In this document: positions 1 through 30,656 of the stretch, piece by piece | How positions within the stretch are numbered: the first letter of the stretch is position 1 | How the letters are laid out: the number at the start of each line of letters is the position of its first letter | Source of the DNA: Pseudomonadota bacterium | GTDB taxonomy: Bacteria > Bdellovibrionota > Bdellovibrionia > Bdellovibrionales > Bdellovibrionaceae | Assembly (NCBI GenBank): GCA_041178425.1 | Contig: JBEGVH010000031.1 | Location: 96,001-160,000, forward strand | DNA: 64,000 bases | Reading direction: 5' to 3' | Made by a program: the position numbers and the translations under genes | The notes under the pieces: generated by a model | Databases searched by the model: none | What the model was told of the DNA's origin: nothing | The model's input: the letters and a program-made list of their open reading frames with translations, nothing else

Positions 1-77
1 TGGGTTCAAAGGCAACTTCTGCCGATCAGAAGAAGCTCCAGGATGATTTCATCTCCAAGGTTCAGGTGGTCCAGTGA
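1..77 (+). CDS. atpF: ATP synthase F0 subunit b, C-terminal fragment (5' truncated by window)
   Basis: Frame from base 3 reads [24 protein letters not shown]; its TGA overlaps the GTG start of atpH; position immediately before delta. Confidence 0.7.
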   Translation, partial: GSKATSADQKKLQDDFISKVQVVQ

Positions 78-2139: not shown

Positions 2140-2151
2140 TGAGAGCATGCC

Positions 2152-3033: not shown

Positions 3034-3041
3034 GGATTTAG

Positions 3042-4864
<1,823 letters not shown>

Positions 4865-4913
4865 TCGTGGTTGTTGCCTGACTCGTTCGATACATTAAAT
4901 TGAAAATATTTAT

Positions 4914-4946
4914 AGACCCTTTTGTTCAGCAAAAGGGTCTTTTTTT
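4914..4946. terminator. Intrinsic terminator between convergent atpC and mfd
   Basis: AGACCCTTTTG-ttcag-CAAAAGGGTCT followed by a T-run. Confidence 0.85.
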
Positions 4947-4950
4947 ATTC

Positions 4951-7900
4951 TTAGATGAGCTTCTCAAGGGACTCTAGTTCCTCAAAAATCCTCTGCATAG
5001 AGATTTGATTCATACGAATAGTGAGCCTAGAGTCAGGGGAAATAGAGTATTTTTTGTTTTCGCGCATAGCGAGCTGAATAACCACCTCTGTTCGCAGCGG
5101 CGTGCGGTCAGAAAAAATGAGTGAGAGTGTTTTTAGCCCCGTGGTTAGATCGCGGATTCCGAGCTGCTTGCATTTCAAGCGCAACAACATGAGGCCCATG
5201 AGGTTCAATACTGGTTCGGGCAGGGCGCCAAATTGGTCTTTTAGGTCATCTTCGAGGTCGGCAAGGTCGTCTTGTGATTGAATATTCGCTAGGGCCTTGT
5301 AGTACGAAAGCCGCAATCGAATGTCTTGTATGTAGGTGTCTGGGATGAGTGCGGGAATACGAAGGTTAATCTCAGGTTCGAGCTCAAGGTCTGGCGGTGT
5401 TTCCCCCTTGGCTTCAGCTAAAGTTTCACTCAGTAGATCCATGTATAACTCATATCCAACCAGGTCGACAGTTCCGGATTGCTCTTCGCCCAAAATATTG
5501 CCAGCCCCTCTCAACTCGAGATCATGCTGAGCCACAACCATTCCACTGCCAAGCGCCGTGTTTTCTTGAATTACGCGCAGTCGTTCCTGTGCTTCTTTGT
5601 CAATATTCTTACCCTTCGGAATTAAAAGGTAGCAGTAAGCTCTTTGTTTAGAGCGGCCAACGCGTCCACGAAGCTGATAGAGTTGAGACAAACCAAGCTG
5701 ATGGGCATTATCAACAAAAATGGTATTAGCTCTGGGAACGTCAACGCCGGATTCAACAATTGTCGTGCACACAAGAACATCGATTTCATGACTGAAGAAC
5801 GAAACCATGGTTTGTTCGAGTTCTTCTTCATTCATTTGGCCGTGAGCTACTTTAATTCGGATATCTGGTAAAAATGCCCTTAACTCATCGGCTATACCAT
5901 AGATGCTCTGAACACGATTATGGATGAAGTAAACTTGTCCACCACGTGAAACTTCGGCGGTGATGGCCTTGCGAATAGTTTCTTGATCGAATTTACAGGT
6001 GTAAGTTCTTGTGGGAAGCCGATCGACAGGTGGGGTGTTAATAAAGCTAAGATCCCTAATGCCCACCAAACTCATATTCAGCGTACGAGGAATTGGAGTA
6101 GCAGACAGGGTTAACGTGTCGATAGCAACGCGCATCTTTCGTATACGCTCCTTGTGTGTGACTCCAAACTTTTGTTCTTCATCAACAATCAACAGCCCCA
6201 AGTTTTTGAACAGTACATCTTTTGATAGAATGCGGTGAGTACCAATCAAAATATCGACTCGACCTTCTTTGGCATCGATCAAAGTTTTTTTTGCATCGGC
6301 GGGAGAGACAAAGCGATTGAGTTCGCGAATTTCGATGGGCCACCCTTTGAAACGCTTTTTGAAGGTTTCAAAATGCTGAAAACTCAAAACCGTCGTGGGG
6401 GCAAGAATAGCGACTTGGCGCCGGTCTTGAACTGCCTTGAACGCAGCCCTCATTGCAACCTCAGTCTTTCCGAATCCGACATCGCCACAGATGAGGCGGT
6501 CCATAGGACGAGGGGATGTGAGATCACTAACGACATCCGAAATAGCACGAAGCTGATCGTCCGTTTCATCATAAGGAAAGCCAGCTTCAAAGGCCGCAAA
6601 GTCTTTATCGGGCGCAGAGAAACTAGGGCGTTGCATTTGAGATCTTTGAGCATAAAGTTGCAGGAGTTCGTTGGCGATGTCGCGAAGATGCGCCTTCACT
6701 TTGACTTTGGCTTTTTCCCAACTTGTTCCACCAAGCTTATCTACCGAAACTGTTGCTAGGCCGCTCGAATATTTTTGTAATTGGGCAATTCTATAAACCG
6801 GCAAATACAACTTATCTTTGTCTTTGTAGGCTATTTGAATGAACTCCGCATCGATGCCATTGACTGGCATCACCTTGAGGCCCTCATATTTTCCCACACC
6901 ATGTTTTATATGAACAACATAGTCTCCTGGATTCAGATCGCCAAAACTCAGCCGCTCTATTTGCTTCTGGATTTCTTTTTGGGCTTGCGATTTTTTGAGA
7001 CGAGATTTGGAGCCAAAAAAATCGTCATCCCGTAAAAAGATAGTTTTTTCAGTCGTCCATCGAAGGCTCTGATCAAGGTAGGCAGGAAGAATGTGAATGA
7101 GACGTTCATCTCGTTTTTGCAGGAGTGACCAGTCTTCTAATAAGAATTCATCATCGGCAGTGACAACAGCACGAAAATCGGCACGCTCAAGCAAATGCTT
7201 AAGGCGATCACTTTGCTGATGGTTGCGTCCGAAAATAAAAATCGTATAGTCATCTTTTTTCCAAAGCTTTAATCGGGCCTCAATCGTTTTTAGCCAGGTC
7301 TCAGATCCAGCGGTGTGACCCTGAATTTGAGAAGCGAACTCGCTTGGCACCAACGCTTGATAATCGATAGATTCAAACTCATCGGTCTCGTCATTATCAT
7401 TAAGAACGATTCGGTTAAGGCGTATTTTTCGACTTTCAATTGGAATTTGAAGTTGCTCAAGAGAGTCAAATAGATCACTCCAAAGTGGTCGGATGGTCAG
7501 TCCGTCAGAATTTGCATATCCCTGCTTAGCCTCTTCAACAAACAAGTCACTCGTTCGATTGATCTCGATGTAATCAAGATACCAAACGTTGAGTGCACTT
7601 GAAAAATGCTCCAACGGCGAGACGCAGGTCTCATAAAAAAATGGCAACATAAAGTCGATACCAGAAAAATACTGTTCTCGAGCAAGACTCCTCAGTGTTT
7701 CATCAAGGTCTTCTTTCTGAACTGGCCGACCCTGCACCGATGATCGAAATTTGGCGAGAACGCCTTCGATGGTCTCCTGATGAAAGAGAACTTCATGGGA
7801 GGGAATAATATATGCTTCATTTAAAACTTTTAGCGTTCTCTGGGTTTCTGAGGAGAACAATCGAATAGACTCAATAAGATCACCAAAAAGTTCTATTCGC

Positions 7901-8586: not shown

Positions 8587-8958
8587 GTGCCTCTAGGTGG
8601 AGTCATCTTTCTATTTATATTCATCACTTTGTTCGGAGCTTTGCTCCTTTTTCTCGCCAATAGAATTGGCCGTCGCATAAAAAAAACGAGTGCCGTGAAG
8701 CTGGCTCCCTACGAGTGTGGTATTCCCGGCATAGACAAAAAGGACACAAAAATATCCGTGAAGTTCTACCTGACCGCGATTCTCTTTATTCTTTTTGATA
8801 TTGAGATCATATTTATGTATCCATGGGCGCTCACATTTAAGGATTTCGCGGCGCAATCAGCAGGATTGTATTCGTTGCTTGCCATGGGCATTTTCCTTCT
8901 AGTGTTCATTTTCGGTCTCTTTTGGGAAGTTAAGTCTAAAGCTTTGGAGTGGGAATAA
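8587..8958 (+). CDS. nuoA: NADH-quinone oxidoreductase subunit A
   Basis: PYECG, FYLTAILFILFDIE, KALEWE. Confidence 0.95.
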   Translation: MPLGGVIFLFIFITLFGALLLFLANRIGRRIKKTSAVKLAPYECGIPGIDKKDTKISVKFYLTAILFILFDIEIIFMYPWALTFKDFAAQSAGLYSLLAMGIFLLVFIFGLFWEVKSKALEWE

Positions 8959-10109
8959 TGGGAACAGATGCATTAGAAATAGCAATAAATTGTATTAAGC
9001 TCGTTCTCATCTTTTTAATGATGGTTCAAGCTGTTCCAATCCTTGTGTGGGTGGAGCGCCGAGGTTCAGCGTTTATTCAAAATCGATTGGGTCCCAATCG
9101 AGTAGGCCCTTTGGGCTTACTCCAGCTTCTGGCGGACGCGGTTAAATTTTTAACCAAAGAAGAGTTTGTTCCGGGTAAGGGTATTCCTCTCCTTTACTAT
9201 TTGGCACCCGTTGTAGCGCTAATTCCGGGCGCGGTTGCCTTTTGTGCAATTCCCCTTTCAACTCCACTGGCTATTGAAGCGTTTGAGCTTTTTGGTCAGA
9301 AATGGGGTCCATACACAATTCTTTTCCAGGGATACGAAATTGGAGTGGGAATTGTTTTCGTTTTGGGAATCTCATCGCTGGCAACATACTCTATTCTAAT
9401 GGCCGGCTGGGGCTCTGGAAATAAGTACTCTTTGCTCGGTGCTCTACGAGCGAGCGCGCAGATTATCAGTTATGAGCTCGCCTTAGGATTATCGATTGTG
9501 GGCGTCTTGCTGTTAAATGGCAGTTTCAACTTTACTGAAATCATTCGCGCCCAAGAGGGCCCCCTGATGTTTCAGTTTTTAGGACACACAATTTCAACAT
9601 CTCTTGTTCCCAACTGGGGAATTTTTTATCAGCCCATTGGAGCCTTGATATTTTTTACTGCTTGTTTTGCCGAAAGCAATCGTCTTCCATTTGATTTGGC
9701 TGAGGGAGAGGCAGAGCTCGTGGCTGGTTTTCACGTTGAGTACGGCGGTTTCAAAATGCTTCTGTTCTTTATCGGTGAATATGGCCACATGATGGTTGGT
9801 TCAGCGATGTTTATTGCGCTCTTTTTGGGAGGATACAATATCCCTTGGATTACTCCACAGATGGTGCAGGAGCACTTCGTTGGACACGGATTTGGACCTT
9901 CGGGAGTCAGTGTAATGACTGCGCTTACTTTTTTTGTTTCCTTCATGATTAAGCTCGCATTGCTCTTGTGGATTTTTATCTGGGTTCGCTGGACCTTGCC
10001 GCGTTTTAGATATGATCAATTAATGGATCTCGGTTGGAAAACGATGCTGCCATGGGCGCTTGCCAATACGATTATTACAGCCATTGTTTTACAGATTGCA
10101 CATTCTTAA
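8958..10109 (+). CDS. nuoH: NADH-quinone oxidoreductase subunit H
   Basis: QNRLGPNRVGP, NRLPFDLAEGEAEL, PRFRYDQLM; ATG overlaps the nuoA stop (TAATG). Confidence 0.97.
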   Translation: MGTDALEIAINCIKLVLIFLMMVQAVPILVWVERRGSAFIQNRLGPNRVGPLGLLQLLADAVKFLTKEEFVPGKGIPLLYYLAPVVALIPGAVAFCAIPLSTPLAIEAFELFGQKWGPYTILFQGYEIGVGIVFVLGISSLATYSILMAGWGSGNKYSLLGALRASAQIISYELALGLSIVGVLLLNGSFNFTEIIRAQEGPLMFQFLGHTISTSLVPNWGIFYQPIGALIFFTACFAESNRLPFDLAEGEAELVAGFHVEYGGFKMLLFFIGEYGHMMVGSAMFIALFLGGYNIPWITPQMVQEHFVGHGFGPSGVSVMTALTFFVSFMIKLALLLWIFIWVRWTLPRFRYDQLMDLGWKTMLPWALANTIITAIVLQIAHS

Positions 10110-10121
10110 AGGAGCTTTTCA

Positions 10122-10658
10122 GTGACTGCTGACGCATTACTTTTTTGGTTTTTAGCTCTCGTAACAATAATTTCTGCTTTGGGAGTCGTGGTGCTTGCGA
10201 ACCCGGTGTTTTCGGCTCTTAGCCTGGTCATGACAATGGTCACGATTGCGGCCCTCTTTGCCACCCTGAAGGCATTTTTTCTTGCTGGAGTTCAACTCAT
10301 TGTGTACGCCGGGGCCGTTATGGTCCTCTTCGTGATGGTATTGATGCTGTTTGACTTACATAAAGAGAAGAAAGCATTTACCGAGGGTGCGTTTTCAGGA
10401 GGACTTAAGTTACTTCTTGGGGGCATGCTCGCGGGTTTGATGGTTGGGGCAGTCTCAATGTCGACAGACCTTTTTAAGTCAGTACCAGAATCGGCAATTA
10501 CTAATAATGTCACTGGCATTGAATCAACGAAGGTTTTAGGCAATCTTCTGATCACTCAATATATTTTTGGATTCGAAATCTTAGGCGTGCTCCTTCTTGT
10601 CATTGCAGTGGGTGCGGTCGCCTTAGCTAGAAGTAAAGGCGGAACACATGGCGCATGA
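10122..10658 (+). CDS. nuoJ: NADH-quinone oxidoreductase subunit J
   Basis: [28 protein letters not shown]. Confidence 0.95.
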
Positions 10659-10971
10659 GTCTTTTTTAGAGCCAAGTCTTATTCATTATCTTATTTTATC
10701 AGCGATCATTTTCTCTTTAGGGATGCTAGGAGTTCTTCTTCGCAAAAATACAATTGTGATTTTAATGTGCATCGAGCTTATGTTGAATGCGGTGAATCTC
10801 ACCTTTGTGGCATTTAGCAAGTATTCAGGCAATATCAACGGTCAAATCATGGTGTTTTTCGTTATGACGATTGCAGCCGCTGAAGCCGCGGTAGGTTTGG
10901 CGATTGCGGTTTCTATCTTTAAGCGATTTAAAGAAATTAACATCCGATTTTTTGAAAATTTGAAGGGTTAA
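10648..10971 (+). CDS. nuoK: NADH-quinone oxidoreductase subunit K
   Basis: [20 protein letters not shown]. Confidence 0.96.
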
Positions 10972-10973
10972 TT

Positions 10974-12908
10974 ATGAACGAACAAATTTTGATTGCAGTG
11001 CTTTTATTGGCCCCTCTCGTCGGTTTTCTAATTAATGGTTTTCGAGTTCGGCATCATAATAATGTGGTGGCTGGCTCCATCGCAACGATTGCGGTGGCAA
11101 CGAGTTTTATTTGTTCCCTCATTCTTTTTATAAAGCTTTTAGACATGCCGCCCGAATCTCGTCGGATAACTGTTAACTTTTTTAATTGGTTATCGGTTGG
11201 AAACTTTAAGGCAGACTTTTCTTTTGTCGTCGATCAGATTAGCGGAATTATGATTCTCATTATAACGGGGGTCGGATCATTGATCCATCTCTTCAGCATT
11301 GAGTACATGCACCACGACAAGGGTGTCGCTAAGTACTTTGCGTACCTAAATCTATTTGTTTTCAATATGTTGTTGCTTGTTTTGGGTGCCAACCTACTTG
11401 TTATGTTTACGGGCTGGGAAGGAGTTGGCCTATGCTCTTATCTCTTAATTGGCTTTTGGTTTAGTGACGAGGCCAAGGCTTCTGCCGGAATGAAAGCATT
11501 TGTGACCAATAGAATTGGTGATGCTGCTTTTATTCTTGGGATGTTTATTCTCTTCATGAATTTTAACACCATTGATTTTGCGGTTCTCAATAGCTTAGCG
11601 CCAACCACTCCGACAACCGACTGGTTAAATCCGCTAACTGTGGCTTGTTTGTTACTTTTTATTGGAGCTACTGGAAAGTCTGCTCAGATTCCACTTTATG
11701 TGTGGCTTCCAGATGCCATGGCTGGCCCTACGCCAGTGTCTGCACTCATCCACGCAGCAACCATGGTGACAGCGGGTGTTTACATGATCGTTCGCTTGAA
11801 CCCCATTTTTATGGCAGCACCTAATGCCTTAATGGTGGTAGCTATTGTTGGTGCGGCGACAGCCGTTGTTGCCGCCTCTATTGGTGTTGTGCAAAACGAT
11901 ATTAAAAAAGTCTTGGCCTATTCGACGGTTTCTCAGTTGGGATATATGTTCTTAGGAGTGGGTGTTGGTGCGTTTGGTGCGGCGATGTTTCACCTTATGA
12001 CACATGCGTTTTTTAAAGCGCTTATGTTTCTAGGCTCTGGAAGCGTCATTCATGCCATGCACGAAGAGCAAGACATCCAAAAAATGGGTGGACTAAGAAA
12101 GTATATGCCGGTGACCCACATTACGTTCGTGATGGGTTGGCTAGCTATTCTTGGTATTCCTGGATTCTCCGGATTCTTTTCTAAAGATGAAATTTTGTGG
12201 ATGGCATTTCATTCACCGATGGGTCACCCTGGCTTATGGGTGGCAGGAGTCGTCGGTGCTGTGATGACCTCTTTTTATATGACTCGTTTAATGGCTCTTA
12301 CTTTTTGGGGCGAGTCTCGAGTTTCAAAAGACGTTCATCCTCACGAATCTCCACTTTTAATGACACTACCATTGGTTGTTTTAGCGGTACTCGCTGTTGT
12401 CGGTGGATGGGTTGGAATTCCACATGTATTGGCGACTTTTATACCTGGACATCCTGAGAACTATTGGGAGCATTGGCTTCATCCGATGATGTCGGCCATT
12501 CCAAACTTGGCTCATGGTGATCCGCAAACAGAGCTCACTTTAATGGGAGTTTCCGTTGGCTTAATACTTTTGTCGGCGACACTTGCGTTTCTTTTCTATG
12601 CGAAAAATTCGTCAGTACCCTCTGCCACAGCAAGACTTTTGGGGCCTATCCATCGCCTATTAGTAGACAAGTACCGAATTGATGAGCTCTATGAGGCTAC
12701 GATCATTCGCCCTCTGGTTTGGCTCAGCGAAAACTTATGGCTTCATGTGGATGTAGCGTTTATTGATCGATGCACACATTGGGCTGCAGATGTTGTTAAA
12801 GGAGCTGGAAATATGGCTCGAACGATTCAAAATGGAAACCTTCAGCAATATGCAATGTATATGGCGCTTGGTTTAGTGGCTTTTCTTTCTTTTGTATTGA
12901 TGAGGTAA
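10974..12908 (+). CDS. nuoL: NADH-quinone oxidoreductase subunit L
   Basis: GWEGVGLCSYLLIGFW, WLPDAMAGPTPVSALIHAATMV. Confidence 0.97.
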   Translation: MNEQILIAVLLLAPLVGFLINGFRVRHHNNVVAGSIATIAVATSFICSLILFIKLLDMPPESRRITVNFFNWLSVGNFKADFSFVVDQISGIMILIITGVGSLIHLFSIEYMHHDKGVAKYFAYLNLFVFNMLLLVLGANLLVMFTGWEGVGLCSYLLIGFWFSDEAKASAGMKAFVTNRIGDAAFILGMFILFMNFNTIDFAVLNSLAPTTPTTDWLNPLTVACLLLFIGATGKSAQIPLYVWLPDAMAGPTPVSALIHAATMVTAGVYMIVRLNPIFMAAPNALMVVAIVGAATAVVAASIGVVQNDIKKVLAYSTVSQLGYMFLGVGVGAFGAAMFHLMTHAFFKALMFLGSGSVIHAMHEEQDIQKMGGLRKYMPVTHITFVMGWLAILGIPGFSGFFSKDEILWMAFHSPMGHPGLWVAGVVGAVMTSFYMTRLMALTFWGESRVSKDVHPHESPLLMTLPLVVLAVLAVVGGWVGIPHVLATFIPGHPENYWEHWLHPMMSAIPNLAHGDPQTELTLMGVSVGLILLSATLAFLFYAKNSSVPSATARLLGPIHRLLVDKYRIDELYEATIIRPLVWLSENLWLHVDVAFIDRCTHWAADVVKGAGNMARTIQNGNLQQYAMYMALGLVAFLSFVLMR

Positions 12909-12911
12909 AGA

Positions 12912-14474
12912 ATGTTTTTAACAACGATTGTATTTTTACCTGTAGTTTTTGCTCTTATTCTTTTGATTTGGCCGAGCGAAAAAACATTGAGACCACTAGC
13001 CTTAGCGTTCAGCTTGGTGGAGCTAGCGATCAGTTTGCTCGTTCTTCAAATGTTTGATCCAAGCTCAGCTAAGATTCAGCTTGTAGAGAACTATGCTTGG
13101 ATTGAGCGTTTTGGAATTCGGTACTTTCTTGGTATCGACGGAATTTCACTTTGGCTTGTTTTATTAACAACGTTCCTCTTGCCAGTGACAATACTTGGAA
13201 GCTGGAAAGCGATTCAAGAGCGGGTTAAGGGATTTCATATTTCTTTGTTCATCTTGCAAACAGCCATGCTTGGTACTTTTTTAGCCCTCGATGGAGTCTT
13301 TTTCTATTTGTTTTGGGAACTCTCTCTTGTGCCAATGTACTTTATTATTGGAATTTGGGGTGGGGCCCGACGCATTTATGCAACGGTTAAGTTTTTTATC
13401 TATACAATGATTGGCTCTGTATTAATGCTTGTGGCTCTCATTTATTTGATGCTTCTAACTCAGGAAGCGACTGGCCAAATGAGTGCAAGCATCCTCGATT
13501 TTTACAAACTCGACATACCTTTTATTAATGGTCAGTTTTTGAGTCCGCAAACCTTAATGTTTTTTGCTTTCGCATTGGCGTTTGCGATTAAAGTTCCAGC
13601 CTTTCCATTTCATACCTGGTTGCCAGATGCCCACGTTGAGGCTCCCACTCCAGGTTCGGTCATCCTTGCGGGTGTAATGCTAAAAATGGGTACCTATGGA
13701 TTTCTTCGTTGGGCCATTCCCATTTTTCCTCAAGCTGCACAACATTACGCGTGGGTATTTTTCGTTATTGGTGCTGTTGGAATCGTTTACGGCGCCTGGG
13801 TAGCTATGGTTCAGCCCGATGTTAAGAAGCTCGTTGCTTATTCATCAGTCTCTCACATGGGCTATGTCCTTTTGGGTATGTTTGCGATGAATATTCAAGG
13901 GGTGTCGGGTGCCCTTTATCAAATGCTAAACCACGGTATTAGTACAGGAGCTCTCTTCTTACTAATCGGTATGATTTACGAGAGAACCCATACGCGAATG
14001 ATTAGCAAATATGGTGGTCTGGCTAGCAAGATGCCGATCTATACTATCTTTTTCTTTATTGCGCTTTTATCGAGTATAGCGGTGCCGCTAACAAATGGCT
14101 TTATCGGTGAGTTTCTTATTCTCTTCGGAACCTTCAAGGCGAATACGATCATTGGCTCTATCGCAGTGACCGGTGTCGTTTTTGGTGCTGTTTATATGCT
14201 ATGGATGTTTAAACGAGTATTTTTTGGAAAACCTGGCGAGGTTGTAGATGATGAACACCATCCGCTCGAAGACCTTTCAGTGAGAGAAATTACTGTGCTC
14301 GTTCCTTTGATGATTTTAGTTTTCTGGATGGGTATTTTTCCAGGACATTTTCTGAAGTACTCAGAGGCCAGCCTCAATCATTTTATTGAAAATCACCAGA
14401 ACTACCAACTTTCTGTGTTGGATCACTCAGCCGAAACTCAGGTAGCAGTAAAGGATCAGACTTATGGAAATTAA
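12912..14474 (+). CDS. nuoM: NADH-quinone oxidoreductase subunit M
   Basis: HTWLPDAHVEAPT, LKMGTYG, AYSSVSHMG. Confidence 0.97.
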   Translation: MFLTTIVFLPVVFALILLIWPSEKTLRPLALAFSLVELAISLLVLQMFDPSSAKIQLVENYAWIERFGIRYFLGIDGISLWLVLLTTFLLPVTILGSWKAIQERVKGFHISLFILQTAMLGTFLALDGVFFYLFWELSLVPMYFIIGIWGGARRIYATVKFFIYTMIGSVLMLVALIYLMLLTQEATGQMSASILDFYKLDIPFINGQFLSPQTLMFFAFALAFAIKVPAFPFHTWLPDAHVEAPTPGSVILAGVMLKMGTYGFLRWAIPIFPQAAQHYAWVFFVIGAVGIVYGAWVAMVQPDVKKLVAYSSVSHMGYVLLGMFAMNIQGVSGALYQMLNHGISTGALFLLIGMIYERTHTRMISKYGGLASKMPIYTIFFFIALLSSIAVPLTNGFIGEFLILFGTFKANTIIGSIAVTGVVFGAVYMLWMFKRVFFGKPGEVVDDEHHPLEDLSVREITVLVPLMILVFWMGIFPGHFLKYSEASLNHFIENHQNYQLSVLDHSAETQVAVKDQTYGN

Positions 14475-15927
14475 TTTAGGGCTTCAAGACCTTTTAAGAA
14501 TTACTCCACTCATTGCTCTCTTTATTACTAGCTTGCTTCCTATCTCAATAAAGGTGTTGAACGGCAACAAGGAACCGAATCCTCTTGTTGCGCTTTCGAT
14601 TGGGCTGTTAGGCTCCCTTGTAAGCGCTATGTTTCTTGGTATTTTTCAAGGTGAGGGTAACCCTGCATTTCATCGTGCTCTTGTGTTTGATGGATTGACC
14701 TTTTGGGTGGGTATCTCTGCTTTGATTGTCACGATGGGGGCATTGTTGTTGGCCTACGAAAGCCCATCAACAGACAAGAATCTTTTTTCTGAGTACGTGT
14801 TTTTGTTGCTCAGTTCGGCGCTTGGAATGCTAGTGTTAATATCGGCTCTTGATTTGCTGGTAGTGTTCATTGGACTCGAGATCATGTCGCTTTCCCTTTA
14901 CCTGTTGATCGCTATGGGTAGTGAACAGAAGCTCAGTAAAGAATCTGCATTTAAATACTTTCTATTAGGAAGCTTTGCTTCCGCTATAATGCTTTATGGC
15001 GTGTCGTTTCTCTACGGGACGGCTGGATCAACATACATTTCTGATATTGTTGAAAGGGCGCCTGATTTCATTTCTTCAAGTCGGCTTTTTCTTATTGGGG
15101 TTGGCCTTGTTATTGTTGGATTTTGTTTCAAGGTTTCCATTGTTCCTTTTCATGCTTGGACACCAGACGTTTACCAGGGTGCTGCAACGCCATTGTCAGC
15201 TTATATGTCGACGGCCGTTAAATTGGGTTCAATGGCCGCGTTTTTGCGCTTTGTAACAATAAAGCCGCTCGCGTACTCTGAAAACTTATTAGATATTGTT
15301 CAGTGGCTCGCCGTTCTTACTATGATTGTGGGTAACGTCGCAGCGATTCGGCAAGAGAGTGTTAAGAGAATGCTTGCCTACTCTTCAGTCGCTCACTCAG
15401 GCTATCTATTGGTGGGCGTACTTTCGAGCTCGATTAGTGCGAATAGCTCTTTTGCCCAGTCGGGTGTGATTTTCTACTTAATCAGCTATGCGATTATGAC
15501 ATTTGGTGCCTTTGCCGTTGTTAATATTTTCGAAGTCAACGAGAACACTCAGCTTTTGGTGGGTGATATGGCAGGCTTCTCAAAACGAAGACCTGTTCTG
15601 GCGTTTTGCTTAACTTTATTTTTGCTTTCATTGGCGGGCATTCCACCAACGGTTGGATTTTTTGGTAAATTCTATTTATTCTCTGCTGCTTTAGCTGAAG
15701 GAAGATTATGGGCCGTTCTTTGGGGGGTCATTAACTCCGTCATTAGCGTGTACTATTACCTCCGCCCGATTGTGTTGATGTATATGCATGATAGCAACAA
15801 AGAAGAAGACGCCGAGCGCTCCATTCCTGCCACGGAAATTGCTATTGTTGTCACAATGATTCTAGTGGTGAGCCTTGGATTTTTTAGCGATTACCTCTTC
15901 AAGGCTGTTGAGAAGTCCCTCTTATAA
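14464..15927 (+). CDS. nuoN: NADH-quinone oxidoreductase subunit N
   Basis: PFHAWTPDVYQGA, KRMLAYSS, SLAGIPPTVGFFGK. Confidence 0.97.
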   Translation: MEINLGLQDLLRITPLIALFITSLLPISIKVLNGNKEPNPLVALSIGLLGSLVSAMFLGIFQGEGNPAFHRALVFDGLTFWVGISALIVTMGALLLAYESPSTDKNLFSEYVFLLLSSALGMLVLISALDLLVVFIGLEIMSLSLYLLIAMGSEQKLSKESAFKYFLLGSFASAIMLYGVSFLYGTAGSTYISDIVERAPDFISSSRLFLIGVGLVIVGFCFKVSIVPFHAWTPDVYQGAATPLSAYMSTAVKLGSMAAFLRFVTIKPLAYSENLLDIVQWLAVLTMIVGNVAAIRQESVKRMLAYSSVAHSGYLLVGVLSSSISANSSFAQSGVIFYLISYAIMTFGAFAVVNIFEVNENTQLLVGDMAGFSKRRPVLAFCLTLFLLSLAGIPPTVGFFGKFYLFSAALAEGRLWAVLWGVINSVISVYYYLRPIVLMYMHDSNKEEDAERSIPATEIAIVVTMILVVSLGFFSDYLFKAVEKSLL

Positions 15928-17121
15928 GCCATATTTTCTCATGGTAGAGATCGCAGATTTGAAACCTATTCTTGCGATCTTTGCCATAATCTTTGGATTT
16001 AGGCTAAAGTGATCCACGAAAAACATCTCGTAGTTCTGTGGCCGAGGATGAATGTACATATAATCTACATTGGGCTTATAATTCACTTTCTGTTCAATAA
16101 TTTCTAAAATTTTGCTTCGATGTTCTTTATCGACATGAGCTTGGCGTAAATAACCCTCAACGGCATTATAGATAAGCCTGATTTCCTGTTGGTGTTCGAT
16201 ATGTTTTTCGATCTTTTGTTGAATTACCTGATAGAGAGCTTGATTCATTATGACGGGAATTCCGTACTGATGGAGACTGCCCATTTCGGGAGTAAAGTGG
16301 TATGGCTGAACGGAATAACTCGAAATGACCAGATCGGCGCCGTGATCAACGGCCACGTGAGTTGAGAGAGTGTCACGGATTTCCCCATCGAAAAAGAACA
16401 TTTCTTTTCCATCTTTTTGTTTAATGCCATAGGGCGCATAAACCGGCGGTAGTGAAGCAGACGCAGCGACGGCTTCGCTAATCTTCGCATAATTAGAGTA
16501 GAGAATTTTTTTATCCTTAGACGCTTCATCGAAGTTTCCAAAGATAACTTTGCGAGAGTGGTTAAGTTGGGTTCCGATAATGAAGAGTTCAACTCCGAGT
16601 CGTTCGAAATCATTCACTGGTAGTACATATTTGCGAAGATAGGATTCTACTCCTCGGGTGGTGAAAAGGCCATTAATGGAAAAAGCATGTTTTAAAAGAG
16701 ACTCCCATCCACCAGAGAGGACGGATCTTCGCTTTAAAAAATTAGGCACAGACTTCATAAGCCCTTGGGTGTTGAGTGCAAACATGTGGCGATAGCTTAA
16801 GGGCTTTAATTCGTTGATACCGAACTCATCAAAAACCTTATTATAACCAAGTCCCACTTCGAAAGCATTAACGAGGCTTTCAATGGTGTACCCAGAAGCC
16901 AAAACCGCACTGATGAAAGAGCCTGCGCTTGATCCGACATAGAGGCGAATGGTCATGGAGTCGTCGGGCCTTGAAACTCTCTGAATAGACTCAGGCGTTC
17001 CCCCCAGAAACCGAAACCCCTTTTCTTTAAGGGCCAAACAAACGCCAATATGAAAGGCAGCGGCCTTAATTCCACCACCGCTAAGGACTAGTGCTATTTT
17101 CTTTTTCTCTTTAATTTTCAT
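15922..17121 (-). CDS. Patatin-like phospholipase family protein
   Basis: LVLSGGG oxyanion motif, GSSAG nucleophile, FFDGE catalytic Asp motif. Confidence 0.9.
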   Translation of the reverse strand: MKIKEKKKIALVLSGGGIKAAAFHIGVCLALKEKGFRFLGGTPESIQRVSRPDDSMTIRLYVGSSAGSFISAVLASGYTIESLVNAFEVGLGYNKVFDEFGINELKPLSYRHMFALNTQGLMKSVPNFLKRRSVLSGGWESLLKHAFSINGLFTTRGVESYLRKYVLPVNDFERLGVELFIIGTQLNHSRKVIFGNFDEASKDKKILYSNYAKISEAVAASASLPPVYAPYGIKQKDGKEMFFFDGEIRDTLSTHVAVDHGADLVISSYSVQPYHFTPEMGSLHQYGIPVIMNQALYQVIQQKIEKHIEHQQEIRLIYNAVEGYLRQAHVDKEHRSKILEIIEQKVNYKPNVDYMYIHPRPQNYEMFFVDHFSLNPKIMAKIARIGFKSAISTMRKYGL

Positions 17122-17254
17122 TACTTCTGTATCTCATAGGTTCGATGTCAAAAAAACACCACATGCGTCGATAAATAAAATCAGTTGGCCACTAAGACAA
17201 TAAAGTTGGTGAGTAGGCTTGAGTATTCAAATGCCCTTAAATTAAACACCATTG

Positions 17255-17282
17255 TGTGGAAATCTGTGAATTCTGTGGATAA
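17255..17282 (-). promoter_or_regulatory. DnaA-box cluster 1 (one perfect, two degenerate, co-oriented)
   Basis: TGTGGATAA at 17274-17282 is the exact reverse complement of TTATCCACA; TGTGGAAAT 17255-17263 and TGTGAATTC 17265-17273 abut it. Confidence 0.65.
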
Positions 17283-17316
17283 CTTTCATCTTTAGCTTAG
17301 CCGAACAAGACAAACC

Positions 17317-17433
17317 TGAGTACCCACTGACTATTCAATGACTACTCATGGATAGTCAGTGGGTATTCAATGGATACTCACTTGACCACTCTGACTACTC
17401 ACTGACTATCCATTGAGTATTCATGACTATCCA
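17317..17433. repeat. Tandem array of 11 palindromic decamers, consensus TGRNTANYCA, about 11 bp period
   Basis: Units start at 17317, 17328, 17339, 17349, 17360, 17371, 17383 (degenerate), 17392, 17403, 17414 and 17424; satellite copies at 17220, 17468, 17479, 17531 and 17543. Confidence 0.92.
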
Positions 17434-17491
17434 AAATTGCGATTTTTAAATGATAAAAGGCATTAAATGAGTACTCATTGAGTAATCAATT

Positions 17492-17530
17492 TGTGGGAAT
17501 GGCTGTGGATAATGTGGATATCGTGGAAAC
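17492..17530 (-). promoter_or_regulatory. DnaA-box cluster 2 (one perfect, one 1-mismatch, two degenerate)
   Basis: TGTGGATAA 17504-17512, TGTGGATAT 17513-17521, CGTGGAAAC 17522-17530, TGTGGGAAT 17492-17500. Confidence 0.65.
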
Positions 17531-17625
17531 TGACTACTCAATTGAATAGTCATTGCCTTTGGTACAAAATTTTTTCATACTCGCGACCGCTTCGCAGGTT
17601 AGAAGCGCCGTAGGGGGATAAGTTT

Positions 17626-17997
17626 ATGGATCAGTGGCTGCCCGTTCTAGATTATGCGGTTAATAACCGAGTCAGTGTCAGCACATTGCGGCGCCGCATT
17701 AAATCCCAAACAGTTGAATACAAGCTTGAGCAGGGCCGTTACCTCATTCGAACGGAATTTCATCCAGAAGGTTCCGATGTTTTATCGGGGAGCGCGTCTG
17801 CCGACTCCATCATGGTGGTGCAAGGCTTGGTGTCTGAACTTAAGAAAGCGTATGGCTTAGTTTTGGCTGAAAAAGAGGAGCTCATTCAGCAGCTTCGCTC
17901 AGAGATAGAGACCCTGAGAAACATAAATAAATTTCTCGAGCTTCAGATCATGAATGACGGAAGAGTCCAAAGTAATTCCCAAGAATTAAACTACTAG
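17626..17997 (+). CDS. Small putative DNA-binding protein: N-terminal MerR/excisionase-like HTH plus C-terminal coiled coil
   Basis: WLPVLDYAVNNRVSVSTLRRRIKS...GRYLI winged-HTH-like pattern; heptad leucines in LRSEIETLRNINKFL; GGGGG RBS-like run before ATG. Confidence 0.7.
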   Translation: MDQWLPVLDYAVNNRVSVSTLRRRIKSQTVEYKLEQGRYLIRTEFHPEGSDVLSGSASADSIMVVQGLVSELKKAYGLVLAEKEELIQQLRSEIETLRNINKFLELQIMNDGRVQSNSQELNY

Positions 17998-25190: not shown

Positions 25191-28100
25191 GTGATCGGTC
25201 ATCTCAGTTCAATTCAAAGCCTGGGCCCTCGTTTGAGCTTTTCTATGGGTCGAAGTGAGATGGCCTTTCTATTGGCGGTTAAGATTTTAAATAAGCTACG
25301 AAAACAACTTAAGAACCCTCGTGAATTGCCCGAAAAAGGAGGGTTGCAAAGCTCTTTATTTTTCATCCTTATTTTGATGAGCCTCTTGGTTTCCTGCGTG
25401 AAGAAGGGTGGGTTTTTAACTCCCTCGTGTTCTCAAGGAAACTCAAACTGCGACTTACCCTCGATGCAAGTTGAGGTCGTGGGCTCCGAGGGGGGTGGGC
25501 AGGCGCAAGTGGATAACAACGGCGACGTTGGAACAGTGGTTCTTAAGTCGGTGAGGTATGGCGAACGGTCTAGGCTAGAATTCATTTTGCAAAACCCAAA
25601 AATTATTCCCCTTCAAAAGATGAGCTTTGCTATTGTTCCGGGAGACACAGCGGCCTTTTCATTAGTAGCGTCGCCTGCCGGTAAAGATTGTCGAGACGAA
25701 GGGCTCTTATTACTCTATAAACAAAAATGCTCGGTCACCATCGAGTTCGCTCCAGGAAAAGTACCTCCCCCTCTGCAAGCTTTGACGTTTACGTTTCAGA
25801 CATTACTTGGTGACACTTTCATTTTTAGATCGAAGTTTGACCCTGCAAAGCTCCTCTCGGATTTCTATTTGTCTGAGGCTGATTTAACAATGCCCGAGGC
25901 TCCAGTGGTTGCCAATGGTGTTACTTCATCGGTCGGTAAAGACATTCTTATTGAGAACAATGGAACCGAGTCTGACCTCTCGAATATTCAGTTTTTTATC
26001 AATGGGTCTACGGAATGGAGCATAGACACCCCCACAGCGACGCCATCTTGCTCTCAAGGTGGAACCATCTCAAAAGGTGGAAGCTCTTGCTACATTCGAG
26101 TTAATTTTGCGCCCAATTCTCCTGGCTTGAAGAACGCCAGTTTGGTTATGGTGAGCGGTGATCAAGTGAGTAGAGAGTTTCCACTCCTTGGCACAGGAAG
26201 AGGGCTTGAGGCCAATATCAATGTCGTTGATTTTGGAGCCGCTGTAATTAACTCGTCATCACCACCCAATAAATCGATCACATTAACATTTCCGGAGGTC
26301 GATGGCGTTCAGTCGGCTAAGGATTGCACCTTCGATGACTCTACCGATTTGGTCGGAACTGGTTTTGCTGTCGCAAGTAATACTTGCACCACTGAGATGG
26401 GCGAAGGTTCCACATGTCAAGTGACTGTACAGTGGACTCCTAGTGCCACCGCCAAAGAACACATTGGCGAATTTTCTTGGTCATGCTCTGAACGAGGAGG
26501 CGCTGGCCGAGTACAGTTAATGGCTCGAAGCTCTGAGTCGCCCTTAGTGTCGGAGATCCTAGAGCTTGATTTTGGTGAAGTTCTTGAGGGTAGTCACAAA
26601 TCACTGAGCCTTGCCTTGAAAAATGACGGAAGAAACATTGGTGATGGAGTGGGAATCGGCACGCTGATTGACCTGAAGAGAGCAGTTAAGGGTGACACTT
26701 TTTCAGAACTGACTTCAACATGTACCGACAAGCTCCCTGTGGGGGCCAATTGCGCCACTACAATTAAGTTTGCGCCGAACTCCTCAGGATTGCAATTTGG
26801 TTCGTTTGAAGCAACTGCCGCTCAGACGGAGATGGATTATAAGGTGGCTCTTCAGGGTCAAGCGATTAAAGTTATTCCTTCGAGTGAACTTGTCGACTTC
26901 GGAACGGTCACACCCAACAGCGATCGCCCTGGTTCCATGGTGTATATTAGAAATCCTTCTTCCACCGAGACTGCATCGGGTTGTGAATTGCTTTATAGTG
27001 ATATTCTCAGTCAGAACTTCAGCCTCGATTCGAGTTCTACCTGCCTATCGAAAACGGAGCTTGCGCCGCATGAGACCTGCTCTGTGCGAGCTCGATTCAC
27101 GGCACTTAATATTTTGGGCGACCGCAATTCCGCTCTTCAATTTCGCTGTGGTGTTGGTGGATCGGCTGAGGTTCGTCTAAAGGGAACAATCGGAAACGAA
27201 ACTCGACTGATGGTGGCGCCGCCGAGCAATCATTACTTGTTAGATCATCTGGTAGGAACCACTAATCATTTAGAATTTTTAGTTCTCAATGGTCACTCGA
27301 CTGAGACCGCGACAGATCTATCGATTGTTCCCACGGGCCTCGCTAATGGCTGGTCCGTGGTGTCATCGAGTGGAGCAAATTGTTCAACGGTGAATCAATT
27401 GACACCCGGTCAGAGTTGCCGAGTGAGAATGCAGTCCTCTCCGAGCGCATCTCCGGGTGGCGAGGAGCTCGGCCCTCACTCAGGAACTCTCGCGGTAAGC
27501 GCCAATGGTGGCAACATAGATCCGCCCGATGGTACGTTTGGTTCTCTAAACAAGAAACTTACCTCAAGCTATCAAGCAGGCTACGATTTTGGAACGCTCG
27601 ATATCAACGAGACGGTTTTATCTGAGCCCATTAGCCTTTACAATCCCTCTTCGATTGATTATGCCTCGGGCTGCATTGGGCCCACGCTCACATCAACGAC
27701 TCCAGGGGCCTTTTCGATTGAGAGCACCAGTTGCAGCCCCTCTGGATTGTCACCTCTGAGCTCGTGTCGTGTTGTTGTGGCGTTTAATGGATCGGCGACT
27801 GATGCCAACATTGAGGAATTTTTAGATTACGAATGTTCCGTGGGTGGGAGAGTTCGCACATCCCTCAACGTCGCGGTTGTTCCGAAGCTAAGATATCTTT
27901 GGAGTGGCAATGGCAACTTCGGATTTTTAGATTTGAATCAACCTGCAGTGGAGCGGACGTTCACATTTACCAATAATGAAGCTTCAACCATGGAAATCAT
28001 CTCCCTTTCATTGGCCAATTCGAGCGCTTTCACAATTCTCGCAAGCGGCACCACGTGTGCGGCAGAAACTCAGCTAACGCAAGGGCAATCGTGCTCTGTT

Positions 28101-30656
28101 AAAGTAGCCTTCGGCCCCTCCGGTGAAGTTTCGTATAGCTCGAAACTCATTATTGCTGGACGACCCCTCGGCTCTTCAGCACCGACAGAGAATTACTCAA
28201 AGAATTTATTCGGAGCAGGCTCTAGCATGGCGCTAGCCCTCTCACAGGATTCTATCACGTTTGATGACCAGCTCGCTGTAAGCAGTATGAGTGAGTCAAA
28301 GCTGGTCACTGTGACTAATAATGGAAGCCGACCCACGACGCTCTCAATCTCAAATCTCGTGGCCCCGTTCTCAGTAGGCAACGGAGGCACTTGTGGTGCT
28401 GTACTTGTTGAGGGCCAATCTTGTACAGTGCAGGTGAAGATGACGGCCTCGGCTACAGGTGTTGGGCTCTATTCAGGAGTTTTGGCAGTGAGCGATCAAG
28501 AGAGCGCTAATGCCGTGACGAGTTCAACCACTTTGAGTGGCCGAATCTTGGCAGCGCCAATTCTTGTAATCAAAGATAATATCACTGATTCCGCGGCGAC
28601 AACTTTGGCGACCACCGATATCACAGGTCCCGTGGGGAATGCCCGTAATATCGTTGATCACAGCGCCAGCAAAACCGTGACTTATACGGTCACCAGCAGT
28701 GTTCCGGGATCGGGCTCGGTGGTCCTTGGCAACGTTGGAATGATACATACGTCTGGTCAGGATCAAACGATGAGTGTTTCTGCCTCTGGAAACACGTGCA
28801 ATGGAAAAACCTTGGCTGCCAACGAGTCATGCTCTTTTTCAGTTGTTTACGAGCCAACACAAGATCATGAGACGTCAAAATATTCGCTGAGTCTTTCTGG
28901 ACTAGATATCGCGGGAGACTCGGTGATGACCTCGGTCACGGAAGTCATTGGCAATTCCTATAAGTCGGCAACGCTGGCTTTTTCGCCAGCGAGCCTCGAT
29001 TTTTCTACTATTGAAAAAGGTGTTGCCGCCACAGAACAGGAAGTAACTATCACCAACAGTGGTGATTACACCGCTGATTTGGGAAGCCTTACATTTTCGG
29101 GTAGTGGAGGATCAGATTATTCCCGATCGGCAGGAACAACGGGCACCAACTGTGGTAGCACAATCGCTGCCGGTGCCACTTGCTATACAAAAATTGGAAT
29201 TACAGCGAGCACAGTTCTTGGTTATCAGAACACGGGAACGCTAAGTTATACTTACACCGTTGGTTCAAGCCAGCCCTCAAAAAGCGCGGTCTTAGGGGCA
29301 ACGGCTTTGTCTTATTTGAGGCTGTCAGCGAATGGTGTTGGATCGAGCTATTACGCAGAGGAAGGCGAAATTGCTTCGGATGAAAATCGGGTTTATATCG
29401 CAACAAGATTTTCTGACTTCACGAGCTATTCAATGCCAGTGATAACGATCTGCGAACGACATGCTGATGGATTTATAAGTGCGGATACAAGTCTCTGTAC
29501 CCAGAATTTGTTAAAGGGAAGTACTCATAATAATTTACTGGTGGGCACTCTAAATGGTTCGGGTCCTAAAATTGCCGTCAGTGGAAATTATTTAATTTTG
29601 GCAGTTAACAATCAGGATACCTACTTTGATGATAATATTTCGGATGGAGTCAATTCGAACACCGCTGGCAACTCTACGTTTATTGTCTGCAAAAAACCAG
29701 TGGGTGGTCGAATAATTGCTTTTGAAACAGATTGCGCGGTCGTACCCATCGATTTTAAAGGTGGAACAATCAGCACTGGGGCTTATCCGTCAATGGCGAT
29801 TGTTGGAAATAAAATCGCGTTGAGTAATTCTATTTCAGGAACAGGCGATAAGGGTGTTATTATTCATGTTTGTAGTTTTGATAACACCCACGCTAACTCG
29901 TCGGGAGTTATTGATAAGACTTCATGTAAGTCGGCGACCATAGATCGCGGCAGTGCTGAACGAGCCCAAATGGGAACTCTCGATTTTCAGGAAAATCAAG
30001 TGGTCGTGGCCTATTACAATCACGTCTCAGGCGAAGAGTCTTTGAATGCGGTAAGCTGTGACGTTGCATCCGACAACACTATTACCTGCGGAATCAGCAC
30101 GAACGTCAGCAGTGCGGTTCTCGATTCACCCACGAGCCCAGTAGCACCTGGAGCTTATCCCTCGATTGTAATCGATAATACAAAAATTTATTTGGCCCAC
30201 CAGCAAGGTGAAAGTAATCGCCGTTATTTGCGTTTGTCGGATTGTAGCCTCAGTGGCGCTGGCAATTTAACGATTGGGAGTTGCTCCACGCAAACGATGG
30301 CCACGAGATCAGGCAGCGAAGGGACTGGAATATACCCGCGCATCTCAAAAGTCGGTAGTGGTGCCGGTGCCAAAATATGGATTAGTTATCTTGGGGCAGC
30401 GGGAGAGTCGGTGTTTAGTAGCATTTACTCGGGTATTCGCTATTGCACCTTGCTGGCATCGGGCTCTCCGACTTGTGAAGCCTCGGCCTATTTTGAAAAT
30501 AAAAACCTATTAACTGCTAACGTAACATTTGTTTCAAGAGGGCATTATTTCGATGCGACCAAAAAAATGATTCTTATTCCTCAGGCCGTTGGCAATAATA
30601 AGAAGGTTGGAATTCTATCGATTGGTATCTTTTCTGATTTACTGCCCTCACCCTAA
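25191..30656 (+). CDS. Giant surface lipoprotein with about 11 Cys-paired Ig-like (choice-of-anchor D/ASH-like) repeats and a C-terminal propeller-like domain
   Basis: Repeated DFG...N.G...C...L..G.SC.V.V.F.P pattern; lipobox-like LLVSC near residue 69, so the true start is probably downstream of 25191. Confidence 0.75.
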   Translation: MIGHLSSIQSLGPRLSFSMGRSEMAFLLAVKILNKLRKQLKNPRELPEKGGLQSSLFFILILMSLLVSCVKKGGFLTPSCSQGNSNCDLPSMQVEVVGSEGGGQAQVDNNGDVGTVVLKSVRYGERSRLEFILQNPKIIPLQKMSFAIVPGDTAAFSLVASPAGKDCRDEGLLLLYKQKCSVTIEFAPGKVPPPLQALTFTFQTLLGDTFIFRSKFDPAKLLSDFYLSEADLTMPEAPVVANGVTSSVGKDILIENNGTESDLSNIQFFINGSTEWSIDTPTATPSCSQGGTISKGGSSCYIRVNFAPNSPGLKNASLVMVSGDQVSREFPLLGTGRGLEANINVVDFGAAVINSSSPPNKSITLTFPEVDGVQSAKDCTFDDSTDLVGTGFAVASNTCTTEMGEGSTCQVTVQWTPSATAKEHIGEFSWSCSERGGAGRVQLMARSSESPLVSEILELDFGEVLEGSHKSLSLALKNDGRNIGDGVGIGTLIDLKRAVKGDTFSELTSTCTDKLPVGANCATTIKFAPNSSGLQFGSFEATAAQTEMDYKVALQGQAIKVIPSSELVDFGTVTPNSDRPGSMVYIRNPSSTETASGCELLYSDILSQNFSLDSSSTCLSKTELAPHETCSVRARFTALNILGDRNSALQFRCGVGGSAEVRLKGTIGNETRLMVAPPSNHYLLDHLVGTTNHLEFLVLNGHSTETATDLSIVPTGLANGWSVVSSSGANCSTVNQLTPGQSCRVRMQSSPSASPGGEELGPHSGTLAVSANGGNIDPPDGTFGSLNKKLTSSYQAGYDFGTLDINETVLSEPISLYNPSSIDYASGCIGPTLTSTTPGAFSIESTSCSPSGLSPLSSCRVVVAFNGSATDANIEEFLDYECSVGGRVRTSLNVAVVPKLRYLWSGNGNFGFLDLNQPAVERTFTFTNNEASTMEIISLSLANSSAFTILASGTTCAAETQLTQGQSCSVKVAFGPSGEVSYSSKLIIAGRPLGSSAPTENYSKNLFGAGSSMALALSQDSITFDDQLAVSSMSESKLVTVTNNGSRPTTLSISNLVAPFSVGNGGTCGAVLVEGQSCTVQVKMTASATGVGLYSGVLAVSDQESANAVTSSTTLSGRILAAPILVIKDNITDSAATTLATTDITGPVGNARNIVDHSASKTVTYTVTSSVPGSGSVVLGNVGMIHTSGQDQTMSVSASGNTCNGKTLAANESCSFSVVYEPTQDHETSKYSLSLSGLDIAGDSVMTSVTEVIGNSYKSATLAFSPASLDFSTIEKGVAATEQEVTITNSGDYTADLGSLTFSGSGGSDYSRSAGTTGTNCGSTIAAGATCYTKIGITASTVLGYQNTGTLSYTYTVGSSQPSKSAVLGATALSYLRLSANGVGSSYYAEEGEIASDENRVYIATRFSDFTSYSMPVITICERHADGFISADTSLCTQNLLKGSTHNNLLVGTLNGSGPKIAVSGNYLILAVNNQDTYFDDNISDGVNSNTAGNSTFIVCKKPVGGRIIAFETDCAVVPIDFKGGTISTGAYPSMAIVGNKIALSNSISGTGDKGVIIHVCSFDNTHANSSGVIDKTSCKSATIDRGSAERAQMGTLDFQENQVVVAYYNHVSGEESLNAVSCDVASDNTITCGISTNVSSAVLDSPTSPVAPGAYPSIVIDNTKIYLAHQQGESNRRYLRLSDCSLSGAGNLTIGSCSTQTMATRSGSEGTGIYPRISKVGSGAGAKIWISYLGAAGESVFSSIYSGIRYCTLLASGSPTCEASAYFENKNLLTANVTFVSRGHYFDATKKMILIPQAVGNNKKVGILSIGIFSDLLPSP

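Follow-up and report, generated by a model that had tools for sequence, protein, structure and literature searches.

The window, the 64,000-nucleotide stretch of DNA analysed here, contains a 504-bp intergenic gap (17122-17625) between a divergent patatin gene and a small open reading frame encoding a 123-residue protein. The gap has the extent given in the original prediction, and the prediction's "about 16" palindromic decamers is correct, since we count 15 strict copies of TGRNTANYCA (at 17220; ten between 17317 and 17433; at 17468 and 17479; and at 17531 and 17543) and two degenerate ones (17210 and 17383), with the copy at 17468 as the only perfect palindrome. The predicted pair of DnaA-box clusters is also present. 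In order along the window, the features of the locus are:

15922 to 17121, minus strand: patatin-like gene, the divergent neighbour and a marker of the locus across the phylum (Pfam Patatin, E 4e-20; divergent in 104 of 107 loci)
17210 to 17229, no strand: distal decamer pair, one degenerate and one strict copy, from sequence
17253 to 17282, minus strand: DnaA-box cluster 1, with a perfect box at 17274-17282 and a one-mismatch box at 17255; genus relatives share the arrangement
17317 to 17433, no strand: main phased array of ten strict decamers and one degenerate decamer, with start-to-start distances of 11, 11, 10, 11, 11, 21, 11, 11 and 10
17468 to 17488, no strand: decamer pair that includes the perfect palindrome, from sequence
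17492 to 17530, minus strand: DnaA-box cluster 2, with a perfect box at 17504-17512 and head-to-tail boxes at 17513 and 17522; kept in genus relatives
17531 to 17552, no strand: promoter-proximal decamer pair, the last copy abutting the putative -35 hexamer
17553 to 17581, plus strand: putative sigma-70 promoter, TTGCCT-17-CATACT, with 8 of 12 consensus matches, conserved in relatives
17626 to 17757, plus strand: residues 1-44, MerR/Xis-type winged helix-turn-helix with an invariant SxSTLRRRIK recognition helix and a G37-x-Y39 wing
17758 to 17799, plus strand: residues 45-58, low-confidence linker (pLDDT below 50 at residues 45-56), its length very variable among homologs
17800 to 17997, plus strand: residues 59-123, a single long coiled-coil helix with a variable polar tail, from the model and the alignment

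Elsewhere in the window, the complex I operon at positions 8587-15927 is confined to membrane-arm genes (nuoA-H-J-K-L-M-N, judged by sequence features), and positions 25191-30656 encode an 1821-residue, probably secreted protein made of repeated cysteine-paired, beta-rich modules.

The density of decamers in the gap is far outside expectation: 2000 dinucleotide shuffles gave a mean of 0.06 copies and a maximum of 2, and nowhere else in the 3.06-Mb genome do two strict decamers lie within 60 bp of one another. Genome-wide the decamer is not enriched: its 180 sites amount to 59 per Mb, and shuffled sequence gives 62-75. The final decamer is followed by TTGC in all five genus genomes; a promoter scan of the gap called nothing, the putative TTGCCT-17-CATACT element falling under its threshold. 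A structured-RNA reading of the gap was dropped, as Rfam gave no match there at E up to 1.

The perfect DnaA boxes, TTATCCACA at 17274 and 17504, are accompanied by one-mismatch boxes at 17255 and 17513 and by weaker adjoining boxes, all on the same strand, and the two clusters flank the main decamer run on both sides with one perfect box each. Four WTCCACA cores occur in the gap against a shuffle mean of 0.26, a count that none of 2000 shuffles reached, and the gap supplies the top 300-bp window genome-wide for this core, which agrees with the NN(A/T)TCCACA consensus given for B. bacteriovorus DnaA in the available text of PMC5124646. The same source places the B. bacteriovorus oriC in the gap between dnaA and dnaN. 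On our contig dnaA lies at 83528-84949, beside a dnaN-dnaA gap that is rich in boxes and in A and T; the cumulative GC skew reaches its minimum at contig position 84429; and two parS sites (92038 and 92611), parAB and the atp operon follow on the same contig. The proximity of the atp operon to parAB and oriC, which the prediction gave for B. bacteriovorus, holds here, with atp coming after parAB and dnaA 29 kb from the locus, and the GC-skew and dnaA check put forward with the prediction makes the locus origin-linked: the array lies about 30 kb from oriC (29.7 kb from the dnaA-dnaN gap) and about 21 kb from parS. The array is not itself oriC, because dnaA, the box-rich and AT-rich gap and the skew minimum all sit elsewhere on the contig, and we rejected a relocated origin on the ground that neither the skew minimum nor the dnaA-dnaN neighbourhood is found at the array, both being some 30 kb away.

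DnaA is also controlled from sites outside oriC, namely datA, DARS and the DnaA-box clusters of Bacillus, and the arrangement of the gap fits the datA/DARS type of layout, in which DnaA-box clusters away from the origin have a site for an architectural protein between them. As a separate observation, a tandem DnaA-box pair occurs in 43 of 44 genomes of genus g4, about 200 kb from oriC in complete chromosomes, and is possibly a datA-like site. In four loci of that genus (L155, L156, L159 and L164, near position 1500) the pair is intergenic and upstream of what appears, from its 5' end, to be the tmRNA gene. The window genome has a similar pair 2.4 kb from divIVA (G000:C11:1129-1146) and, in another intergenic stretch, two perfect boxes 48 bp apart (G000:C16:22835-22891).

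The 123-residue protein is shown by modelling to consist of a MerR/Xis-type winged helix, a floppy linker and a long helix, as had been expected from its winged-HTH-like N-terminus and heptad leucines. A full-length model built from 109 homologs has a small alpha/beta head (residues 1-44) and a single helix (residues 59-121), with pLDDT 86-98 over residues 61-110; the head folded alone reaches pLDDT 88 with AlphaFold2. Along the coiled coil E71, K73, A75, Y76, L80, K83, E84, L104 and E105 are invariant. The best structural matches of the head in VIA-align are Xis (Z 6.4, rmsd 2.6 over 46 aligned residues), a MerR domain (5.8) and BldC (5.5), followed by RdfS (5.1), Cox (5.0), pSK1 Par (4.2) and RacA (3.7, rank 34). 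Since all of these scores fall below Z 8 and Foldseek found no match at E 0.001, the results name a fold class rather than a family; the comparison with RacA and MerR thus upholds a MerR/Xis-type head and does not place RacA closest. The full-length VIA list was filled with unrelated helices and was uninformative.

PDB sequence searches returned nothing significant and matched no RacA or Par chain; hhalign against a single pSK1 Par sequence aligned the head in register at a non-significant E of 0.06-0.08; and no Pfam or NCBIfam family fits the protein beyond generic coiled-coil matches. A weak YabA match in 6 of 109 members was not trusted. DUF536 is not found in the genome at E up to 1, and no C-terminal amphipathic helix is conserved, the tails being polar and variable with a hydrophobic moment of 0.09-0.43 in the eight tested. 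The plasmid collection had no match to the protein, the phage search gave weak excisionase matches only (E 0.2-0.7), and the metagenome scan yielded no usable relatives. Among the candidates scored there were no longer or fused forms, which is weak evidence. Two of 61 phylum genomes hold orthologs that pass the Pfam cut-off for DUF3972 (PF13118, a mostly Campylobacterota family) over most of the model, and 14 of 109 members match it weakly; the family resembles our protein by its Atlas features and its model, and the window protein itself has no match to it at the curated cut-off. From L308, L309 and the Pfam family, the Campylobacterota DUF3972 proteins look like distant relatives over both head and coiled coil.

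By profile search, on which all calls of absence rest, the gene was found in 141 of 151 genomes of the order and 128 of 151 of the phylum, usually as a single copy, and in none of 14 genomes of family f22; the named neighbours in the homolog search are Bdellovibrionota. It lies 24-79 kb from dnaA and within 50 kb in 65 of 68 cases, distances that can be measured only for pairs on one contig, which favours short ones. Of 104 loci, 91 have the decamer, defined from the window alone, upstream of the gene, with 206 sites against 1.7 in shuffles and 25 in patatin coding controls; after removal of near-duplicates 48 of 59 do. Eight of the 80 loci of one search had been dropped from this set, the gene having been missed by the search pattern. 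Homologs lacking the motif upstream, which would have counted against the original prediction, are therefore a small minority. Of 63 loci examined, 49 gave a sigma-70 call, and in 33 of these a decamer starts within -1 to +2 of the end of the -10 hexamer, where it covers the predicted transcription start site; further promoter decamers gather about 45 and 87 bp upstream. Because the decamer overlies the predicted start site, its position is that of a repressor site, and the conservation of this operator on the gene's own promoter makes the autoregulation that had been suspected likely.

The dense array is real here and turns out to be a feature of certain lineages. Arrays of 8-21 copies occur in seven genomes: all five of the genus, plus G415 and G309, which come from two other genera. 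Most relatives carry 1-5 promoter decamers. In the dense loci 245 of 284 site pairs keep a 10.5-bp phase; in the sparse loci 44 of 114 pairs are in one-turn phase, about what chance gives, and spacing peaks at 44-46 bp. DnaA boxes accompany the array in all seven dense loci, in the opposite orientation in G415 and with a non-conserved 110-230 bp between the clusters, against perfect boxes in only 3 of 100 sparse intergenic regions; the loci of most orthologs have no DnaA boxes. In dense-array genomes the array at the gene promoter is the only large decamer cluster.

In relatives, the decamer also gathers around the replication origin. A search for tandem decamers matched 33 of 182 genomes, compared with five for a control pattern, and found clusters inside parB, parA, mnmE and dnaA and beside parS. 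A dnaA match was present in 140 genomes of the order, and we then took the 20-kb dnaA-atp region of 60 of these, favouring long contigs and a spread over families. These regions contain 218 decamers where each genome's own rate predicts 59.9, a 3.6-fold excess that appears in 53 of 60 regions and 11 of 11 families, counts that are not independent as the genomes are kin. Seventeen genomes together have 24 decamer clusters, compared with 0-2 for each of eight control patterns. Synonymous resampling locates the excess in parA (24 against 5.1), parB (28 against 7.7), mnmE (28 against 7.0), dnaA (20 against 7.0), mnmG (14 against 4.8) and rsmG (9 against 2.9), each above the maximum of 100 resamples, and leaves recF, dnaN, yidC and the atp genes inside the resampled range. 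Over the named genes of the origin region the total is 169 against 65 expected, with runs of 4-6 decamers inside parB, dnaA or mnmE in differing reading frames; since it exceeds the synonymous resamples, this excess cannot be put down to the encoded proteins. Around the 104 parS sites, 27 decamers come within 100 bp, against 1-3 for controls, and eight start 2-5 bp off the parS edge, some on both sides. The decamer heads a list of 256 palindrome shapes for close pairs; for enrichment the parS core and an AT-rich shape rank above it, leaving it third. In several genomes the variable N-terminal part of ParB is built of decamer copies, read in differing frames as Thr/Ser/Gln-rich repeats (L191:7294-7390, L199:4607-4692, L189:4689-4737 and L248:7365-7435).

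The centromere-like link to the origin that had been proposed is therefore carried by relatives, whose origin and parS regions have decamer clusters, since the window genome has two strict decamers in its 20-kb origin region and none near parS. In Bdellovibrio proper the decamers are few and degenerate; four of the six genomes have one at a distance of 10 bp from the parS nearer to parA. A spread over hundreds of kilobases, as with ram sites, was rejected: apart from the array, the 199-kb contig with the origin shows no surplus of decamers, and in one complete chromosome 7 of 26 decamers lie within 450 kb of the ends, about the expected share. Three loci (L173, L174 and L206) have clusters of three decamers that are near neither the gene nor any recognisable origin gene, and may represent further targets.

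Genomes in which the gene was not found offer a counterpart. In 19 of them (11 from f22, six from f21 and two from f24) the parB region has 20 decamers against 19.1 expected, and no pairs, whereas ten gene-bearing f21 genomes have 40 against 12.5, in a gene beyond atpC or in the dnaA-dnaN stretch; because the excess is absent without the gene and present in gene-bearing f21, the motif appears tied to the gene, in genomes that are again kin and not independent. Outside the order set, the gene-bearing origin regions covered are those of f15, f17 and f21, and not those of f14, f16, f18, f20 and f24-f30. Families f15 and f17 (five genomes each) are exceptions, keeping the gene and a near-identical recognition helix with no decamer at the gene promoter and no excess in the parB region (3 against 3.3, and 6 against 4.1); in five such distant genomes 3 of 7 decamer pairs fall within 30 kb of parB, a weak hint. 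Seven of eight f21 genomes have 5-10 decamers 2.3-4.8 kb upstream of the gene studied here, within a large gene after atpC or immediately ahead of it (L134, L135, L137, L138, L139, L148 and L149), and in three f21 genomes the dnaA-dnaN stretch has decamers beside DnaA boxes. That stretch also has copies of a GGCCGTG-containing repeat near the DnaA boxes and decamers (L291:17400-17700, L292:2600-2950 and L293:2500-2900), perhaps variant boxes or sites for another binder.

The B. bacteriovorus ortholog links the protein to a stage of the predatory cycle. In our locus set (L119) it has 161 residues and lies 294 bp from a 399-residue patatin; in the HD100 table Bd3881 (486 bp) lies 294 bp from Bd3882, a 1200-bp patatin gene. 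In the supplement of PMC3627812, where the sheet name and the rows for dnaA, parA and parB led us to take the two columns as attack phase and growth phase, Bd3881 rises from an RPKM of 42 to 6291, several times the level of parA or parB mRNA. The published proteomic table lists Bd3881 as uncharacterised, peaking at 3-4 h (log2FC 2.07, FDR 1e-16), back down by 6-7 h, and sharing a cluster with ParA, ParB and NrdR (PMC12546842). We did not find Bd3881 in two supplementary files of a DivIVA/RomR proximity (polar-hub) study, in the searched supplements of a histone/nucleoid study, or in a Tn-seq study that uses other locus tags, and these blanks are no evidence either way; our literature search found no mutant data for the gene. 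As excerpted, published work describes the origin as strictly polar in Bdellovibrio (PMC8445325) and infers a Bdellovibrio-specific factor that controls ParB loading in attack phase through 242-330 bp of parS-flanking DNA (PMC10547168). Because decamers hug parS, the protein is a candidate for that factor; the simplest version, a ParB blocker of the attack phase, is disfavoured because Bd3881 is low in that phase. The low level also counts against an origin-organising role, the origin being strictly polar at just that stage.

We propose that the protein binds TGRNTANYCA sequence-specifically and, much as RacA or RicO do, organises the origin region in the growth phase, when replication takes place, a reading to which we give a probability of about 0.6. 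Binding of the decamer is the strongest part of this prediction and is very probable, a structural role at the origin is somewhat favoured, and a polar or membrane tether is doubtful. Two long helices would pair as a parallel coiled coil, each head of the dimer reading one half-site, and dimers spaced one turn apart would line one face of the DNA and, as the phasing suggests, coat the array cooperatively. Self-repression, from a decamer that covers the start site or adjoins the -35 box, would fix the level of the protein. Decamers by parS and in parA, parB, mnmE, mnmG and dnaA may, on genome statistics, mark an origin-proximal, centromere-like zone that the protein would condense, bridge or tether through the conserved surface of its coiled coil, alongside ParABS. 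In this genus the sites instead sit together in a single 340-bp array, at 21 kb from parS and at 30 kb from oriC, where interleaving with DnaA boxes could couple the locus, or transcription of the gene, to initiation.

Several known systems share parts of this plan. With RacA and its ram sites the likeness, as far as the accessible text of PMC4914108 describes them, covers a MerR-type winged helix, a long flexible linker and a C-terminal coiled coil, a palindrome with TG...CA ends clustered near oriC, and stage-specific expression; the window genome also encodes divIVA, as RacA hosts do. Unlike the 14-bp, GC-rich ram (PMC4914108), our decamer is 10 bp and richer in A and T; its sites lie within about 15-35 kb around oriC or in one array and many abut parS, where ram and ricS sites span hundreds of kilobases; the protein is expressed during replication and not, as RacA is described, in a dormant programme; the decamer is found in the gene's own promoter, in a Gram-negative host; and RacA is far from the best fold match to the protein. 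The RacA analogy offered at the outset thus stands for fold class, origin linkage and stage of expression and fails for long-range scatter and closest fold. RicO (10.64898/2026.03.06.710092) and RocS (PMC11500499), as excerpted, are likewise small HTH proteins with a coiled coil and a tail, and Staphylococcus aureus RicO has specific sites near oriC, some in a zone shared with parS; the RicO study, in its available part, surveyed Firmicutes only (10.64898/2026.03.06.710092). Unlike RicO and Streptococcus pneumoniae RocS, the protein described here does not match DUF536 and has no amphipathic helix conserved at its C-terminus.

The Par protein of plasmid pSK1 autoregulates, and the repeats at its gene, like ours, form an array immediately upstream, within an intergenic region that also has replication functions. 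The protein combines a winged helix with a coiled coil (PDB 8CSH; PMC11500499, in part). In contrast to par, our gene is chromosomal and near-universal in the order, its repeats are palindromic and not direct, and the protein shows neither DUF536 nor the amphipathic helix and only a non-significant profile match. The cooperative repeats of BldC/Xis-type proteins are spaced one helical turn apart. Streptomyces BldC and phage Xis, RdfS and Cox include the best structural matches to the head and bind repeats cooperatively (PMC5859096, as excerpted), but a long coiled coil is missing from them, and their sites are direct repeats, bound head to tail, as opposed to a palindrome. Against RacA, RicO, RocS and Par alike, then, we see a likeness of plan with no significant sequence kinship.

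Much of the evidence can also be read in terms of transcription. An autoregulated cell-cycle factor of BldC/MerR type would make the array an expanded operator and the parS-near sites operators of the parAB promoter, with in-gene sites as roadblocks or by-products and the DnaA boxes adding DnaA control of the gene. Such a factor fits the operator over the start site in 33 of 49 promoters, the rank of BldC among the folds and the co-expression with parAB in the published tables (PMC3627812, PMC12546842), and the parS-near sites may be promoter sites because parS2 sits just upstream of parAB. We still consider it rather unlikely: most origin sites are in coding sequence, well above the 65 expected, in runs of 4-6 and several frames; the window genome has no clusters at other promoters; and the ortholog's mRNA stands several times higher than that of parA or parB in the same supplement (PMC3627812). 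A further reading makes replication control the main task, as at datA, DARS and the Bacillus clusters: the protein would bend or bridge DNA between DnaA-box clusters so as to titrate, recycle or block DnaA and pace initiation in the filament. The boxes in every dense locus of three genera, once in the opposite orientation, and in only 3 of 100 sparse regions, the decamers by DnaA boxes in the dnaA-dnaN stretch of three f21 genomes, the excess inside dnaA and the Xis-like fold all suit it, but most orthologs have no DnaA boxes, the spacing of the clusters is not conserved (110-230 bp) and the strongest decamer excess surrounds parS and parAB. As the principal function it seems to us improbable, and in dense-array lineages it is compatible with the origin-organising role that we prefer.

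Two other explanations separate the decamer from the protein or from any function. If another regulator bound the decamer and controlled both gene and origin region, leaving the neighbouring protein with a different target, f15 and f17 would be explained, having the gene with no promoter or origin sites; the absence of the excess across the 19 gene-not-found genomes, among them f21 members whose kin have both, and the location of the array at the gene promoter in every dense case make this very improbable. The array might instead have grown from a single ancestral operator by neutral tandem expansion or through faulty assembly. This would suit a copy number that ranges from 8 to 21 across dense loci, but it is largely refuted by the conservation pattern and strains belief: free positions differ while fixed ones are kept, spacers are unrelated, the phase is kept, and seven independent assemblies show the array.

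To the problem of how the many origins in a non-binary Bdellovibrio filament are placed and kept apart, this analysis brings a candidate gene (Bd3881, seen in the HD100 data), a predicted site and a map of where that site lies. Our literature search of Bdellovibrio with RacA, Bd3881, DUF3972 and polar anchoring, with subscription journals and bioRxiv supplements outside its scope, found no earlier description. In its most far-reaching and tentative form, our proposal is of a second, ParB-independent centromere system in Bdellovibrionota, which would be the first RacA-like one outside Firmicutes: its sites may gate parS from 2-5 bp off the edge, sit in or near oriC and, in some lineages, be fused into one array with DnaA-box clusters, so that one protein might link the availability of DnaA with the positioning of origins and the loading of ParB through the multiple rounds of replication in the predatory filament, and could form part of the parS-flanking factor described in the available text of PMC10547168. 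The relation to DUF3972 would also provide a lead for the Campylobacterota proteins of that family. If the proposal is true, it would extend origin organisation of the RacA/RicO/RocS type to a Gram-negative phylum.
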